Part shown: piece after piece, positions 3,513 to 41,653 of the stretch
Numbering within the stretch: position 1 is the stretch's first letter
How the letters are laid out: each line of letters opens with the position of its first letter
Source of the DNA: Clostridia bacterium
GTDB taxonomy: Bacteria; Bacillota; Clostridia; UMGS1810
DNA length: 44,026 bases
NCBI GenBank assembly: GCA_017503945.1
Contig: JAFVSB010000155.1
Coordinates: 1-44,026, forward strand
Direction of reading: 5' to 3'
The notes under the pieces: generated by a model
Told to the model about the DNA's origin: nothing
Seen by the model: the letters and a program-made list of their open reading frames with translations, nothing else
Databases searched by the model: none
Program-made: the position numbers and the translations under genes

Positions 3513-4184
3513 ATGATACGAACAGAAGATTTAGGAATCAACGGTCTTAAAATAATGCAGGATTCAGACCTTTTCTGCTTTGGCACCGATAGCGTCATGC
3601 TCTCGGATTTTGCAAGAGCCAAAGGGTCAGACACAGTGGTTGACCTTTGCACAGGCGGTGGCATTATACCTGTGCTTCTGAGTGCCAAAACAAACGCCAA
3701 AAAGCTTTGGGGCATCGAGCTTCAAAGAGCTTCGTTTGAGCTTGCGCAAAAAAACATTGAAATAAATGGCCTTGACGGCCGCATGGAGGTCATTTGTGAT
3801 GATATTGCCAACTGCCTTAGCCATTTTGCTCACGGCTCGGTAGATGTGGTCACCTGCAATCCGCCGTATATGAGCGCTTCGGCAGGCTTTCAAAATCCCG
3901 ACGAGCCAAAGGCTATAGCCCGTCATGAAATACGCACCAACCTAAAAGGTGTGATCCGGGCGGCAGAGAGCATTTTAAAATTTGGCGGTCATTTCTACAT
4001 GGTGCACAGAGCCGACAGGCTGTGTGATATCATTTGGGAGCTAAGGCAAAAAAAGCTTGAGCCAAAGCGGATTCGCTTTGTTGCCCCTTCTCCCGAAAAG
4101 GAGCCAAAGCTTGTGCTTGTGGAGGCAATGAAGGGCGCTGCCCCGTCACTTAAGCTTGAACCCACTGCATTTGTAAATATATAA
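3513..4184 (+). CDS. SAM-dependent N6-adenine methyltransferase, YabB / tRNA1(Val) m6A37 TrmN6-like
   Basis: MIRTEDLGINGLKIMQDSDLFCFGTDSVMLSDFA..., DLCTGGG SAM-binding motif and NPPY catalytic motif. The track ORF from 3306 overlaps the ferredoxin gene and its terminator, so the start is moved to ATG 3513 (GGAG RBS). Confidence 0.82.
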   Translation: MIRTEDLGINGLKIMQDSDLFCFGTDSVMLSDFARAKGSDTVVDLCTGGGIIPVLLSAKTNAKKLWGIELQRASFELAQKNIEINGLDGRMEVICDDIANCLSHFAHGSVDVVTCNPPYMSASAGFQNPDEPKAIARHEIRTNLKGVIRAAESILKFGGHFYMVHRADRLCDIIWELRQKKLEPKRIRFVAPSPEKEPKLVLVEAMKGAAPSLKLEPTAFVNI

Positions 4185-4324
4185 ATCCGAACTATTATAA
4201 ATTATTGTTTAGCTGCATACTGCTTGCTGTTTCGAAGCCGAAGCGGAAAAAGTATACCCAAACCTGCGAAGTGCATTATTTGCTAAACAATAATTTATCG
4301 TGCAATTAAAGCTTGAGTTCGGAT
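4185..4324 (+). repeat. 140-nt one-arm structured intergenic element, possibly related to the 16695 and 26760 elements
   Basis: ATCCGAACT (4185-4193) pairs with AGTTCGGAT (4316-4324). ATAAATTATTGTTTAGC (4197-4213) pairs perfectly with GCTAAACAATAATTTAT (4282-4298). It starts at the first nt after the upstream stop codon. Confidence 0.6.
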
Positions 4325-4354
4325 ATCTTCGTTCAGGACAGGAAGGAAAAACGC

Positions 4355-8092: not shown

Positions 8093-10684
8093 ATGAAAAA
8101 CAAATCCTCGGTCACACCGATGATGCAGCAATACTTGCAAATCAAAGAAGAATATAACGATTGTATTTTGTTTTTCCGTCTCGGTGATTTTTATGAGATG
8201 TTTTTTGATGATGCAATCACTGCATCGCGCGAGCTCGAAATCACTCTCACAGGAAAAGACTGCGGTCTTGAGGAGCGCGCACCCATGTGCGGAGTGCCGT
8301 TTCACAGCGCTCAGGGCTATGTGACCCGCCTTATCAAAAAAGGCTACAAGGTGGCAATATGTGAGCAGGTGGAAGACCCTGCCACTGCCAAGGGCATAGT
8401 AAAGCGCGATGTCATCAGAGTTATCACCCCCGGCACTGCCGACACAGAGTCGATAGGCGAAGAAAACAACTTCCTCGCATCGGTGGTCATGGAAGATGAT
8501 GCATATGGCATAGCCTTTGCCGATGTCACCACAGGAGAGGTTATCGTGTCAGACGGTGAGTCTGAATTTGGCGAGAGCTCACTCATCAATCTTCTTGCAT
8601 CATTCAAACCCTCTGAGATAATTCTCAATTCAGGCTCAGCGAAGCGCTGTAAGGATATTGTTGACCTTAAAAAACGCTATAATTTTTATGATAGCTTTGC
8701 CCCCGATGAGCTCTTTGAGCTTGCCAAAGCCAAAGACAGCATCAAAGCTCAATTTGGCGAAAGAGCCGCTATAGATGCAGGCATAGGTGAGTCGGAGCTT
8801 TGCCAGAGAGCTCTTGGAGGCCTTTTGGCATATCTTTATGACACTCAAAAAGTAGACCTCACCCACATCAATTCGTTCAAATACATCTGCAGCAGCCGCC
8901 ATTTGCAAATAGACATCAGCTCTTTTCGCAATCTGGAGCTCACCGAGACCATGCGCGACAAGGAAAAACGCGGCTCGCTTCTGGGCATTCTTGACCGCAC
9001 CAAAACTGCAATGGGCGCTCGCAGGCTAAAATCGTGGCTTGACCGTCCCTTAATTGATTCACAGCAGATAAACCTTCGAAGCGGTGCAGTGGAGGAGCTT
9101 GTGAATAATACAGTGGTGCGTGAGGAAATCACCGAAGCTCTCAAGCTTGTGTATGACATCGAGCGCATACTTTCAAGAGTGGTTTACGGCTCATGCAACG
9201 CAAGAGATTTCGTGTCGCTTCGTCAGAGCCTCGAGATGCTGCCCGCAGTGAAAACGGCGCTTTCGAAGTGTTCGTCACACTTTCTTTCGCAAATTGCCAC
9301 AAGCCTTGACACCATGTCGGAGCTAAGGCTACTCATAGCATGCGCAATAGTAGACGAGCCCCCCGTGACCATAAAAGAGGGCGGCATGATAAAACAGGGC
9401 TTCGATAAGGAACTTGACCGCATAAAGGAAATCCTTTTGGGCGGCACCGACCACATTGCCGCAATCGAAGCAAAAGAGCGCGAGCGCACTGGCATTAAAA
9501 ACCTCAAGGTGGCATACAACAGAGTTTTTGGCTATTATATAGAAATATCAAAATCCAACCTTGACCGTGTGCCCGAGGAATATATCCGCAAGCAGACCCT
9601 TGTGGGCGGTGAGCGTTTTATTACTCAGGAGCTAAAAGAGCTTGAGTCAAACATCTTAAACGCGCGCGAAAAGGTCAACGCGCTTGAATATGAAAACTTC
9701 CTTGCAGTAAAAAAAGAAATTCTTTCAAATCTCAAAAAGCTTCAAAACACAGCCAAGCTTGTGTCGGTTACCGATGCACTGTGTTCGCTGGCCACCGTTG
9801 CCCACCAAAGAGGCTATGTGCGCCCTGTGGTGAACGATGGCGATGTAATAGACATAAAAGACGGGCGTCACCCTGTGGTGGAGACGAGTCTGAAAGATTC
9901 GCTCTTTGTGCCCAACAACACCTACCTCGACACAGCCGACAGCCGCTTTTCAATCATAACAGGCCCCAACATGGCGGGCAAATCCACCTATATGAGACAA
10001 ACCGCGCTGATTGTCATCATGGCGCAGATAGGCTCGTTTGTGCCTGCAAGCGAGTGCACAGTGGGCATTGTGGATGCAGTGTTCACCAGAGTGGGCGCAT
10101 CTGACGACCTTGCATCGGGCCAGAGCACATTCATGGTGGAGATGAACGAGGTTGCCCACATTCTCAAAAACGCCACTTCCAGAAGTCTTATCATTTTAGA
10201 TGAAATAGGCCGAGGCACCTCAACCTTTGACGGCCTCTCCATTGCGTGGGCAGTTGCCGAATATATAGCCGATGCCTCCCGCATTGGCGCAAAAACTCTT
10301 TTTGCAACTCACTATCACGAGCTTACCGCTTTGGAAAACCGCATCGACGGAATAAAGAACTATAGCGTTGCCGTGAAAAAGCGCGGTGATGATATCACAT
10401 TTCTTCGAAAGATTGTAAAAGGTGGCACCGATGATAGCTTCGGCATAGAGGTTGCCCTTTTGGCAGGACTTCCGCACGAGGTTATAGACCGTGCCAAAGA
10501 GGTGCTTTGCATGGTAGAGTCGCACTCAGGTGCGCCCCAAACCGAAAATATCCGCCCAAGCGAGGCACCACAGGTTTCAGACAGCTTAAAAGATGAGCTT
10601 ATGGCAATTGATGTGTCCACCCTTACGCCTATTGAGGCGCTCAATGAACTATATAAACTTCAGAAAAAGGTCAGTGAGCTTTGA
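8093..10684 (+). CDS. mutS: DNA mismatch repair protein MutS
   Basis: 863 aa. N-terminal TPMMQQYLQIKEEY...FFRLGDFYEMFFDDA, Walker A GPNMAGKST and STFMVEMNE motifs. Confidence 0.98.
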   Translation: MKNKSSVTPMMQQYLQIKEEYNDCILFFRLGDFYEMFFDDAITASRELEITLTGKDCGLEERAPMCGVPFHSAQGYVTRLIKKGYKVAICEQVEDPATAKGIVKRDVIRVITPGTADTESIGEENNFLASVVMEDDAYGIAFADVTTGEVIVSDGESEFGESSLINLLASFKPSEIILNSGSAKRCKDIVDLKKRYNFYDSFAPDELFELAKAKDSIKAQFGERAAIDAGIGESELCQRALGGLLAYLYDTQKVDLTHINSFKYICSSRHLQIDISSFRNLELTETMRDKEKRGSLLGILDRTKTAMGARRLKSWLDRPLIDSQQINLRSGAVEELVNNTVVREEITEALKLVYDIERILSRVVYGSCNARDFVSLRQSLEMLPAVKTALSKCSSHFLSQIATSLDTMSELRLLIACAIVDEPPVTIKEGGMIKQGFDKELDRIKEILLGGTDHIAAIEAKERERTGIKNLKVAYNRVFGYYIEISKSNLDRVPEEYIRKQTLVGGERFITQELKELESNILNAREKVNALEYENFLAVKKEILSNLKKLQNTAKLVSVTDALCSLATVAHQRGYVRPVVNDGDVIDIKDGRHPVVETSLKDSLFVPNNTYLDTADSRFSIITGPNMAGKSTYMRQTALIVIMAQIGSFVPASECTVGIVDAVFTRVGASDDLASGQSTFMVEMNEVAHILKNATSRSLIILDEIGRGTSTFDGLSIAWAVAEYIADASRIGAKTLFATHYHELTALENRIDGIKNYSVAVKKRGDDITFLRKIVKGGTDDSFGIEVALLAGLPHEVIDRAKEVLCMVESHSGAPQTENIRPSEAPQVSDSLKDELMAIDVSTLTPIEALNELYKLQKKVSEL

Positions 10685-16692: not shown

Positions 16693-16694
16693 TT

Positions 16695-16968
16695 AGCCGA
16701 AAGAGAGCAATCCCAACCCGCCTGAAATGGTGAAATTTTGGCGTCTTTTGGCTTGTCATCTTTGCAAGGCACAAAGCCTTGCTTTATCTTCCGCACCAAA
16801 ATCCACTCAGAATTTCATCCATTTCAGGTCATGGAATTTTCAGAGAGCAAATTTTTGGTTGCGAAAGGCAAAAACACAGGCAATCCTGATGGATTGCCGA
16901 GTATTTTAACACAGCGAAAGTGAAAATTCGCCTCTGAAAATCGGAGTTTGGATTATTCTCTTTCGGCT
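16695..16968 (+). repeat. 274-nt closed two-arm structured element (family copy A) between ylmH and divIVA
   Basis: Closing stem 16695-16713 / 16950-16968 (12 perfect bp, G-U, one mismatch, 5 bp). Arm 1 is 16721-16828 and arm 2 is 16836-16941. Colinear with 26760-27036. Confidence 0.75.
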
Positions 16969-16985
16969 CTAAGGAGGATATACAA

Positions 16986-25580: not shown

Positions 25581-26744
25581 ATGCAAAAGAATAAATTGTT
25601 CACCCGTGTGCTTGCCATAGTGGCACTTATTGCCTTTTTAGGTGTTACAATTGTAGCAAGTCTGCCATCGGGTAGTGTGCGTGCTGCATCAGTGCAGGAT
25701 GCTCAGCGTAAGCAAAAAGAAGCAACTGCCAAAAAAGAAGCAGCCCAAGACTGGCAGAAAAAAGAGATTGCCAAGCGCGAAGAGCTTGACAAGCAGATTT
25801 CATCAGTTCAGGCCGAGATAGATAAATTTCAGGCAGAAATCGACCGCAAGGCCATAGCCATAAAGGCAAGCGAGCAAAAAATCAACACTCTCACCAAGGA
25901 TTTGCAAAAGCAAAATGCCGGTTACAACGAAAGAGCCAAAAGGCTCATCAAAAAAGGCAATGTATCATACACCGAGATCATACTGCGCTCCAAATCAATC
26001 GACGACATGCTCACCAGAATGTCGGTGGTAAAGCGAATTGCCGAATATGACTCAGACAAGCTCGAAGAAATTGAAAGCTCAATGACCGAGGTCGAAAAGC
26101 TCAAGGCAGACCTTTTGGCTCAAAAAGAAGAAGTGGTTTTGCTAAAAGCAGAGCAAGATTCCAAAAAAGCGGAGCTCGATGGCTACCGCAAGCAAAGCCA
26201 GGATATCATCGACAAGCTTCAAAAAGATATTGCAGCTTTTGAAAAAGAATATGAAGCTGCCAAGCAGCTCGAGGCTCAGGCGCGTGCCGAGGCAGAACGC
26301 TTGCGCCGTCAGTCTGATGCTACGCTCAATCTGCCTGCAAATTACACAGGCGGCAAGTTCTTGTGGCCGTCGAATACCACACATCTTGTAACATCACCCT
26401 ACGGCTATCGTATTCACCCCGTCACCGGCAAATCGCGCTTCCATGCAGGCATCGACATTGGTGCAGCTCATGGCACCTCTATCCTTGCGGCAAATGACGG
26501 CGTGGTTATAGTGGCAGGCTACAACAGCGGCGGCTACGGCAACTATGTGGTAATAAATCATGGCGGCGGCTATACTACCCTTTATGCTCACTGCAGCTCG
26601 CTTTTAGTGTCGGTAGGTCAGAAGGTGAGCCGCGGTCAGGTCATTGCCCGCTGCGGTTCCACAGGCATGTCCACAGGACCGCACATTCATTTTGAGGTTC
26701 AGGTCAACGGCACCACCACCAATCCGATGCAATATTTTAATTGA
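25581..26744 (+). CDS. Coiled-coil M23/LytM-domain peptidase (EnvC/PcsB-like partner of FtsEX)
   Basis: Signal peptide, a ~230-aa coiled coil, then the M23 domain with HAGIDIGAAHGT and GSTGMSTGPHIHFEV motifs. Confidence 0.9.
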   Translation: MQKNKLFTRVLAIVALIAFLGVTIVASLPSGSVRAASVQDAQRKQKEATAKKEAAQDWQKKEIAKREELDKQISSVQAEIDKFQAEIDRKAIAIKASEQKINTLTKDLQKQNAGYNERAKRLIKKGNVSYTEIILRSKSIDDMLTRMSVVKRIAEYDSDKLEEIESSMTEVEKLKADLLAQKEEVVLLKAEQDSKKAELDGYRKQSQDIIDKLQKDIAAFEKEYEAAKQLEAQARAEAERLRRQSDATLNLPANYTGGKFLWPSNTTHLVTSPYGYRIHPVTGKSRFHAGIDIGAAHGTSILAANDGVVIVAGYNSGGYGNYVVINHGGGYTTLYAHCSSLLVSVGQKVSRGQVIARCGSTGMSTGPHIHFEVQVNGTTTNPMQYFN

Positions 26745-26759
26745 TTTTGTCATACACTT

Positions 26760-27036
26760 TAGTGTGCCAGGATTCGAACTCTCACTGCCTGACAAATGAA
26801 AATTTGAAAAGCTTTCAGCTTGTCGGTTTTGACGGGCGTCAGCCCGCCTTCAACCTGCCGCACTAAAATCTTAATAAAATTTTCATTTGTCAGGTGCCGA
26901 GCAGTTTCACATAGACAAATTTTCTTGAAACAAAGTAAATTACGCAGGAAATACTGACGTATTTTCAAGGAATTTACTGTAGTTTCAGGTGAATTTGTCA
27001 TGTGAAACCAATGTTAGTTCGAGTCCTGGCACACTA
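26760..27036 (+). repeat. 277-nt closed two-arm structured element (family copy B) between the M23 peptidase gene and ctp
   Basis: 21-bp closing stem 26760-26780 / 27016-27036 with a single G-U. Arm 1 is 26788-26894 (17 perfect bp at the base). Arm 2 is 26904-27008. Colinear with 16695-16968. Confidence 0.75.
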
Positions 27037-27051
27037 TTCGGAGCTGATTAT

Positions 27052-28236
27052 ATGACTAAAAAAAGGCTTGTTGCCCTTTTGGCTGTGTGCTCAGTTATAA
27101 CAGCCATGCTTACCACTCTTTTTTTCCTCTCGCCACAAGGCAGGGCAGTGTATGCCACAATCGCTCAGCGCATTGGTGCAAGTCCTGCTGCTAAGCTCAT
27201 GAAGATAGAATCAATAGTAGACTCTGTGTACATGGGAGAATATGACAAAAACTGGCTCACCGACAAGGCGGCATATGAATATGCTGCTTCGGTAGGCGAT
27301 AAATACACACTCTATCTCAATGCCGCTGATTTTGAAAGCATGCAAGAAAATCTCGATGGCGGATACCGCGGCATCGGTATTCAGGTTGGTGCGAAAGACG
27401 GCAAGGTGCTCATTGACAGTGTGATGAAAGCTTCTCCTGCTGAGGCTGCCGGTCTTTTGAGCGGTGATTTTATAGTTTCGGTAAATGATGTGAGCTACAC
27501 ATCAGAAGACCTCTCAGAGGTTGTTTCGGCAATAAAGGAAGTGCCGCCTGGCGAAAGCGTCAAGCTTGGCATAGAGCGCGCAGGCGAGCTTATTGAGAAA
27601 AATGTCATAGTTAGTGATGTTGAGCTTGAATATGTAAAATCTACTCTCCTCGACGGCGGAGTCGGCTTTGTAAGAGTTGACACCTTTGGCAATGATGTGA
27701 GCGAAAAGTTTAAATCACACATAAACGCCCTCATTGAAACCGGCGCCACATCTCTTATCATAGATTTGCGCTCCAATCCCGGCGGTGCTCTTGATACTGT
27801 TGTGGATATGGTTGACTTTTTGGTGCCTGAGGGTATAATCACCACAGTTAAAGACCGCAACGGCAACGAAGAGGTCTATAGTTCTGACAAGTCAGAGATA
27901 AATCTCCCCATGTGTGTGCTCATAAATGAAAACAGCGCCAGCGCATCAGAAATCATGGCGGCAGCGCTCAGTGATTATGGCAAAGCCACCTTAGTTGGCA
28001 AAAACACCTACGGCAAAGGCGTGGTGCAGGGAGTGTATTCCTTGGGTGACGGCACAGGCCTCAGGGTAACCATAGCGCGTTATTACACCCCTGCGGGGCA
28101 GTGCATCGACGGCAAGGGTGTAGCGCCCGATGCAGAAGTTGATTTGCCGGATGGTATTTCGCTTAAGCACTTTGATGCCACCGAAGAGGGCGACACTCAG
28201 CTTGAAAAAGCAATAGATATTCTAAAGAATAAATGA
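27052..28236 (+). CDS. ctp: S41-family C-terminal processing peptidase with PDZ domain
   Basis: N-terminal TM anchor, a PDZ segment (GIQVGAKDGKVLIDSVMKASPAEAAGLLSGDFIV), and DLRSNPGG and NENSASASEI catalytic motifs. Start moved to ATG 27052; the track start 26989 lies inside the structured element. Confidence 0.9.
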   Translation: MTKKRLVALLAVCSVITAMLTTLFFLSPQGRAVYATIAQRIGASPAAKLMKIESIVDSVYMGEYDKNWLTDKAAYEYAASVGDKYTLYLNAADFESMQENLDGGYRGIGIQVGAKDGKVLIDSVMKASPAEAAGLLSGDFIVSVNDVSYTSEDLSEVVSAIKEVPPGESVKLGIERAGELIEKNVIVSDVELEYVKSTLLDGGVGFVRVDTFGNDVSEKFKSHINALIETGATSLIIDLRSNPGGALDTVVDMVDFLVPEGIITTVKDRNGNEEVYSSDKSEINLPMCVLINENSASASEIMAAALSDYGKATLVGKNTYGKGVVQGVYSLGDGTGLRVTIARYYTPAGQCIDGKGVAPDAEVDLPDGISLKHFDATEEGDTQLEKAIDILKNK

Positions 28237-41407: not shown

Positions 41408-41653
41408 TGTGTGGCATGACAGACGATGAAGCGGGAGGTTACCGGCTGCCCCAAAGCGGCCAATTTCCGTGGAGAATGTCCGGGTCCAGAATCCGGGCGG
41501 CAAGGTCACAGTGAATACCTACTCGTACTATGCCCCGGTATCCTTGTGCCGGGTTTTAATATGAGGCGGTATGACACACACGGGTGTGTGTGAACTGTTT
41601 TTATGACTGCCGATATGGCACCGAAAATCAAATTATGTTAGGAGGTACTATCA
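41408..41653 (+). promoter_or_regulatory. ~245-nt GC-rich structured leader of the S10 operon with two hairpin/U-run attenuator-like elements
   Basis: The segment is visibly GC-rich compared with its AT-rich flanks. Hairpin 41534-41553 is followed by TTTT. Hairpin ACACACA-CGGG-TGTGTGT (41574-41591) is followed by TTTTT at 41598-41602. Confidence 0.45.

Follow-up and report, generated by a model that had tools for sequence, protein, structure and literature searches.

A dispersed two-arm palindromic element between an M23 peptidase gene and ctp in a Clostridia genome is probably a TA-duplicating MITE

The classical family of TA-duplicating transposable elements is IS630/Tc1-mariner. Correia elements duplicate TA as well, and an IS630-family DDE transposase is believed to move the RUP repeats of the pneumococcus in trans. 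Elements of the IS200/IS605 type, on the other hand, have neither terminal inverted repeats nor a target duplication and lie in a fixed orientation beside a specific target of 4–5 nt. Small dispersed repeats with predicted stable RNA folds and compensatory changes are known from the Bacillus cereus group (bcr1) and from the pneumococcus (BOX), and effects of such repeats on the expression of neighbouring genes have been reported. In co-transcribed Correia repeats the hairpin is cut by RNase III, and promoter and positional effects have been described (PMC10969869). Pneumococcal repeats cluster and insert into each other (PMC10969869), and it is a general theme in Firmicutes that structured repeats influence their neighbours (PMC2229807, PMC3184786).

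Here we analyzed a palindromic element located in a 44,026-nt stretch of DNA from a Clostridia bacterium (contig JAFVSB010000155.1; this whole stretch is called the window in the following). A first-pass annotation made from the sequence alone had described, between the gene of an FtsEX-associated M23 peptidase and ctp, an element at 26760–27036 consisting of a closing stem and two arms. Both the sequence and the minimum free energy (MFE) fold bear out this architecture at these coordinates. The element fills its spacer, which is bounded by the end of the peptidase ORF at 26744 and the ctp ATG at 27052, and the GGAG at 27040–27043 is free of the element. As can be read directly from the sequence, the closing stem comprises 21 bp (26760–26780 with 27016–27036) and T26773–G27023 is its sole wobble pair; in an inverted-repeat search this stem reaches 28 nt at 86% complementarity. 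The hairpin CGGGC-GTCA-GCCCG at the apex of arm 1 is likewise seen in the sequence, and the MFE fold contains arm 2 with the apical hairpin of 8 bp and the TGAC loop. For the base of arm 1 the claim of a perfect inverted repeat holds, but its length had to be corrected from 17 to 18 bp (26788–26805 with 26877–26894). The internal loops of this arm bear GCTTGTC and CCGCACTAAAATC. With an MFE of −128.8 kcal/mol the element is far more stable than its shuffled versions (−65.2 ± 5.0 kcal/mol; z = −12.7), and none of 200 shuffles was as good. The reverse strand folds nearly as strongly (z = −11.5). A sibling at about 16695–16968, between ylmH and divIVA, has the identical geometry as had been noted (fold z = −8.6), and sequence blocks are common to both arms of the two copies, while their outer closing stems differ. 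The 3′ tip of the sibling contains a 2-nt irregularity, GGC-TC-TA. The inner motif of the 5′ terminal repeat is ATTCGAAC in the copy upstream of ctp, and its family-wide form in the family alignment is ATCCGAAC. All features are listed in Table 1; the ribosome binding site (RBS) and start codon of ctp are host sequence outside the element, 4 nt downstream of it.

Table 1. Positions in the window of the parts of the M23-ctp element, of the adjoining ctp start and of the sibling copy
Feature	Position	Strand	Evidence
Target TA, 5′ copy of the duplication	26760–26761		TA at 9984–9985 of L001 aligns to 26760–26761 and to 27035–27036
5′ terminal inverted repeat (closing stem, 5′ side)	26762–26787	+	Inverted repeat, MFE fold, family alignment
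Arm 1, perfect 18-bp base and apical hairpin (26833–26846)	26788–26894	+	Sequence, MFE fold, inverted repeat, family covariation
Arm 2, long hairpin with bulges; 8-bp stem and TGAC loop at its apex (26947–26966)	26904–27008	+	MFE fold, family covariation
3′ terminal inverted repeat (closing stem, 3′ side)	27009–27034	+	MFE fold and inverted repeat
Target TA, 3′ copy of the duplication	27035–27036		Alignment to the empty site
ctp RBS (GGAG) and ATG	27040–27054	+	Same sequence in the empty site of L001
Sibling copy between ylmH and divIVA, main GCCGAAAG subfamily	16694–16971	+	266 bits to the family HMM

A comparison with Rfam 15 gave no family matching the element, neither at gathering thresholds for the whole window nor at E ≤ 10 for positions 26650–27150; the best sub-threshold matches were plant microRNA precursor models that fit a generic hairpin. 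The sole Rfam family passing its threshold in the window is the S10-Clostridia ribosomal protein leader (RF03136), found at 41417–41503 on the plus strand with 36.7 bits, just over the gathering score; this leader precedes ribosomal protein genes.

Next, we compared the two spacers with those of related genomes, using for the M23-ctp locus contigs that encode Ctp homologues. The M23-ctp spacer measures only 32 nt in L001, L002 and L003 (Ctp 80% identical) and in L018 (83%), where the order FtsE-FtsX-M23-ctp is kept, and it is also empty, with 45 nt, in the more distant relative L004 (Ctp 54% identical). BLAST alignments of L001 and L018 to the window run at ~89% nucleotide identity and break exactly at the element, and a single TA of L001, and likewise of L018, matches both TA dinucleotides that border it. 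The empty site reads cacttTAatcggag and the filled site cacttTA[GTGTGCC...GGCACAC]TAttcggag. The M23-ctp copy is thus a 275-bp insertion with a duplicated TA target. An identical copy was observed in L016 and L017, which represent the same strain in other samples (99.95% identity). For the ylmH-divIVA locus we observed spacers of 17 nt in L137 (YlmH 89% identical), 15 nt in L138 and L139 (71%) and 18 nt in L004, whereas the copy is present in a 95% relative, L140, whose contig breaks inside the element. Judged by these spacers, this copy is likewise a lineage-specific insertion. A TTAGCC string in the empty spacer of L137 was considered as an excision footprint and rejected: its TAG is the ancestral stop codon, which is also found in L004, and only two bases are left unexplained after this shared codon. 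We also observed a family copy filling the ylmH-divIVA spacer of a distant species (MAG JAZQAN01; L088 2665–2939, minus strand). The YlmH of this species appears distantly related to that of the window, although the two were not aligned, and closer relatives of the window are empty at this site; the copy in L088 is probably a recurrent insertion into a permissive site.

These results bear directly on the interpretation offered at first, namely that the two copies belong to a structured RNA of cell-envelope and division operons, either a stand-alone non-coding RNA gene family or an operon-specific regulatory RNA that is ancestral to these operons. The strong fold, the conserved sibling, the covarying helices described below and the sense orientation of both window copies would fit such an RNA. 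Its ancestral presence, however, is already contradicted by the orthologous spacers, which in close and distant relatives measure 32–45 nt (M23-ctp) and 15–18 nt (ylmH-divIVA) and all lack the element. The duplicated TA and the inverted repeats at the ends also speak against this reading, as do the many copies, at least 10 in some single MAGs, which adjoin unrelated genes in both orientations. Moreover, neither a conserved promoter nor a dedicated terminator nor an Rfam match was found for the element, and we regard an ancestral RNA as the least probable of the explanations considered here, with hardly any chance of being correct. Empty orthologous spacers together with nearly identical copies elsewhere had been named in advance as the signature of a selfish repeat. 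The first part of this signature was observed in close relatives, while the second was not, as the copies are diverged.

In order to define the family, we scanned one genome per GTDB species for the conserved motifs of arm 1 (GCTTGTCNNNTTTG, 20–40 nt, CCGCACNAAAATC), a pattern for which we estimate from the size of the collection about 0.4 chance matches. It was found in at least 118 stretches from at least about 45 species-level MAG assemblies. Among the matches listed, all but one come from MAGs of Clostridia, Clostridiales, Ruminococcus, Oscillospiraceae or Ructibacterium, and the host MAGs are from the guts of ruminants, humans and chickens. With a profile HMM of 68 copies, 151 matches were obtained in 1.09 Mb of loci, including more diverged subfamilies beyond the reach of the arm-1 pattern. 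Full copies are 272–280 bp long, and in other genomes 72 of 82 are bordered by TA on either side. The longest ORF of the individual copies measures between 38 and 87 codons and varies in strand, frame and length, and none is conserved, so that the family is non-coding. Inside the M23-ctp element there is an ATG ORF of 80 codons on the minus strand (26759–27001), which was rejected as a gene because the other copies differ in strand, frame and length. Blastn against phage and plasmid collections gave no matches to the element, and a viral origin was dismissed after viral contigs, scanned with a loose pattern, had returned only chance matches inside coding sequence. A full-text literature search, which included literal motif strings, retrieved no description or matching sequence of the element.

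The terminal inverted repeats of the family are ~25 bp long, match at 19–22 of the 22 terminal positions and have a common inner motif (ATCCGAACC / GGTTCGGAT). In the outer 12 nt, which form the most variable part of the element (entropy 1.1–1.2 bits), several subfamilies can be distinguished (GCCGAAAGAGAG, GGGTGACAGAAG, GCCTGATGTTAG, GCCTGACGCTGC, GTGTGCCAGG, GGCAAGAGGGAG and others), and the M23-ctp copy is of the GTGTGCCAGG type. With its sequence GTTCGAGTCCTGGCACACTA the 3′ repeat recalls the T-arm and acceptor end of a tRNA; ARAGORN reported no tRNA, the 5′ half of the T-stem is missing and other subfamilies do not show this resemblance. We regard it as superficial and as arising from the TTCGAA palindrome. 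The outward flanks show the same profile at both ends (TA followed by A.C), with T-TA-A as preferred target context, and the target therefore appears symmetric. Besides full copies we found single-arm derivatives, solo-repeat hairpins, tandems that share one TA, head-to-head and nested arrangements, and truncated copies, and many family copies are located at contig ends. Clustered copies occur at L130 5408–5786, L054 5748–6290, L063 513–1054, L129 5170–5582 and L136 3630–3963, as tandems with a single TA in common, as head-to-head pairs 4–8 nt apart or as nested and chimeric copies. A deletion derivative at L125 4720–4839 consists of one arm closed by the inner repeat, L151 and L165 contain solo-repeat hairpins of ~50 bp made of the terminal repeats alone, and the copies in L146 and L150 lack most of both arms. 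The window holds a further intergenic palindromic element at 4184–4325, with a perfect 17-bp stem (4197–4213 with 4282–4298) and an MFE of −43.9 kcal/mol (z = −5.3). Its outer stem ATCCGAACT/AGTTCGGAT equals the inner-repeat motif of the family, while the element gave no match to the family HMM and no clear homology to arm 1.

The structure of the ends is also informative on a possible origin from a hairpin-dependent single-stranded DNA transposon, be it an IS200/IS605-type PATE, a REPIN or a different HUH system, with the folded arms themselves as recognition sites. Two long subterminal hairpins that are kept by covariation would suit such an element, and so would the fact that no DDE partner was found. 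It is nevertheless very unlikely, given that the element ends in terminal repeats of 25 bp, duplicates TA and has a symmetric flank profile, and that the mismatches within its helices lack any strand asymmetry (see below).

We therefore consider the element, with good confidence, to be a copy of a non-coding MITE family of ~273 bp that duplicates TA and carries ~25-bp terminal inverted repeats. The insertion itself, the TA duplication, the terminal repeats, the dispersal in many copies and both orientations, the derivatives and the lack of a conserved ORF were all observed. In its small size and non-coding nature, its terminal repeats, the duplication seen between filled and empty site, and the insertion polymorphism of its dispersed copies the element corresponds to a MITE, and TA is the target duplication of elements that are mobilised by IS630/Tc1-mariner. 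A transposase that duplicates TA probably mobilises the element in trans, and this may be a DDE enzyme of the IS630/Tc1-mariner family or of the IS5/IS427 group. We searched ~1.1 Mb of loci and, in a metagenome scan, looked for repeats not followed by arm 1, and neither search revealed an autonomous element sharing the terminal repeats, a partner that not every definition of a MITE requires. The latter scan mostly returned reverse-complemented 3′ ends, because the terminal repeats are inverted; the remaining candidates were deletion derivatives and chance matches. This missing partner counts against a MITE, and three further observations do so as well: the outer 12 nt, which a transposase would be expected to conserve, are the most variable; the internal helices are maintained by compensatory changes, for which a decaying selfish repeat has no need; and the copies show an orientation bias at gene starts despite a target that looks symmetric.

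To evaluate the upkeep of the helices, we analyzed the alignment of 68 copies with RNAalifold, which recovered the closing stem and the two arms as they had been drawn from the window alone. Standard pairs account for 94.8% of the cells in the proposed helices, and both sides have changed in 54 of 74 pairs, compared to 22–29 in controls in which the pairing partners were slid by 1–3 columns. The covariation score is 0.358 versus at most 0.099 in these controls, none of 500 shuffles reached any of the observed measures, and compensatory changes were seen in all nine helices. The original claims that the palindromes are not due to chance and that the two copies form a genuine family are right, and compensatory substitutions, whose absence had been named as refuting them, are abundant in the proposed helices. 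The helices are actively maintained across the family, although this alone does not prove that the element is an RNA. Template-switch correction of quasi-palindromes could also yield double-sided changes without selection. For a decision between the strands we compared G·T with A·C mismatches in the union of the plus- and minus-strand consensus pairs and observed 266 and 300, respectively, a balance as expected for DNA palindromes; arm 2 leans toward the plus strand and arm 1 toward the minus strand. The mean stability of the family's minus-strand folds exceeds that of the plus-strand folds by 3.8 kcal/mol, and the test for an RNA strand accordingly favours neither. A higher conservation of loops than of stems was dismissed too, since the entropy is 0.66 for paired and 0.76 for unpaired columns once those that the search pattern had fixed are left out.

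Next, we focused on the genes next to the insertions. The downstream genes are unrelated housekeeping genes (atpD-, purF-, dapA-, glgC-, luxS-, uvrB-, pfkA-, obg-, rplQ-, divIVA- and ctp-like), and a gene-specific cis-regulatory RNA is not indicated, as neither an association with a single gene family nor an ancestral presence at the loci was observed. With respect to all neighbours the orientation of the copies is weakly biased (26 co-directional, 19 opposite). Among 91 distinct full-length copies, however, a start codon with RBS lies on the same strand within 40 nt of the element 3′ end in 31 cases, while the reverse arrangement, a start on the opposite strand at the 5′ end, was found in 7 (p ~1e-4). 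Gene ends show no such bias (22 versus 17). The 3′ end of the element is usually located 9–24 nt ahead of the start codon, with the RBS left undisturbed. Since the target profile is symmetric, the bias at gene starts probably reflects selection after insertion. The sense orientation of both window copies agrees with this family-wide bias, so that an effect at the RNA level retains some probability. Neither a conserved promoter nor a one-sided terminator explains the bias: matches to an outward promoter are marginal and not conserved across the family copies, and in the main subfamilies the apex of arm 2 lies between an A-run and a T-run and resembles a terminator on both strands.

We also compared orthologous copies with their flanks. 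The element is more conserved than its surroundings in L108/L123 (100% versus ~85%), in L030/L117 (97.5% versus ~87%) and in the window compared to L140 (98.6% versus ~95%). A near-identical strain pair (L157 3083–3356 and L144 3971–4244) shows the opposite, with 97.1% identity in the element and 99.5% in the flanks, which are 99–100% identical over 1.5 kb per side. The 8 differences within the element are mostly transitions and do not compensate each other, a pattern that points to mis-assembly of repeats, to gene conversion or to a hypermutable element. In view of this pair, mis-assembly or gene conversion can account for the conservation figures in general, and purifying selection was not accepted as an explanation, the results being mixed and confounded by repeat assembly in metagenomes and by gene conversion.

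The maintained helices and the orientation bias could also mean that the element spreads as DNA while its three-way-junction fold is selected in the transcript, so that it would act as a transposable, self-folding RNA module in cis whose orientation decides on downstream expression. We consider this a tentative alternative to the MITE interpretation, clearly the less probable one. It would be in line with compensatory changes in every helix, with a sense bias at gene starts that is absent at gene ends and is not given by the target, with the position of the 3′ end just ahead of spared RBSs, with those orthologous copies that exceed their flanks in conservation, and with the occupation of the ylmH-divIVA spacer in a distant MAG. 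Possible roles would be those of a processing or insulating module, or of an orientation-dependent terminator or stabiliser of the downstream gene; one orientation may be read through and perhaps processed by RNase III, while the other may terminate transcription. Retained copies, including the one ahead of ctp, would then be functional parts of their operons. What reduces the likelihood of such a module is that wobble pairs reveal no strand asymmetry and mean fold stability is slightly higher for the minus strand, that many copies are antisense to their neighbours and none of the gene families is associated with the element, that it changes faster than its flanks in one strain pair, and that template switching at quasi-palindromes could generate the double-sided changes.

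For the MITE that we favour, pairing within the arms and the terminal repeats may be kept because it is needed either for transposition competence or for folding of the co-transcribed RNA. A read-through transcript of ftsEX-M23-ctp is predicted to fold into a very stable three-way junction that ends 4 nt before the ctp RBS. RNase III would plausibly accept the closing helix of 21–25 bp and, by analogy with Correia repeats, its cleavage could uncouple the M23 and ctp cistrons. In practical terms, the stable intergenic folds of this family mimic novel structured RNAs in MAGs of gut Clostridia, and their identification as a MITE prevents such false leads in annotation; copies at contig ends also explain contig breaks. 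As the insertions vary among related species-level lineages, they could serve as strain markers for Clostridia of the rumen and the human gut that have no cultured representatives. With its diversified subfamilies, its compensated helices and a 4:1 bias at gene starts the family offers a system for testing transcript-level selection on MITEs. Should the RNA module prove true, the scattering of the element would rewire the expression of operons in many gut Clostridia, and the sense copies retained at M23-ctp and ylmH-divIVA would be functional.

Taken together, the closest described systems are the TA-duplicating bacterial MITEs, namely Correia and RUP/IS630-Spn1, and bcr1 and BOX are close as well. 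Like the element described here, Correia (CREE/NEMIS of Neisseria) is a non-coding MITE with terminal repeats of ~26 bp and a TA duplication that occurs in many intergenic copies, often just upstream of genes. Correia elements are, however, ~100–200 bp long, contain an IHF site and promoters, lack paired long internal arms and belong to a different phylum. Kinship in sequence is not expected; cleavage by RNase III is known for them and by analogy only conceivable for the element of gut Clostridia. RUP is also a MITE of Firmicutes that inserts at TA, and the clustering of copies in L054, L063, L129, L130 and L136 is like that of pneumococcal repeats. With 107 bp RUP is much smaller, and it has a known partner with the same ends, IS630-Spn1, whereas no partner was found for the Clostridia element, whose repeat tips are diversified. 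Bcr1 (~155 bp) duplicates TTTAT instead of TA, BOX is modular and has neither terminal inverted repeats nor a target duplication, and neither of them shows a 275-nt three-way junction of a closing stem and two arms. With motifs of the Rfam type the element shares a defined consensus structure with covariation, although no family matched at threshold. It is set apart from known MITEs by its size and two-arm architecture, by its diversified repeat tips and by its orientation bias at gene starts.
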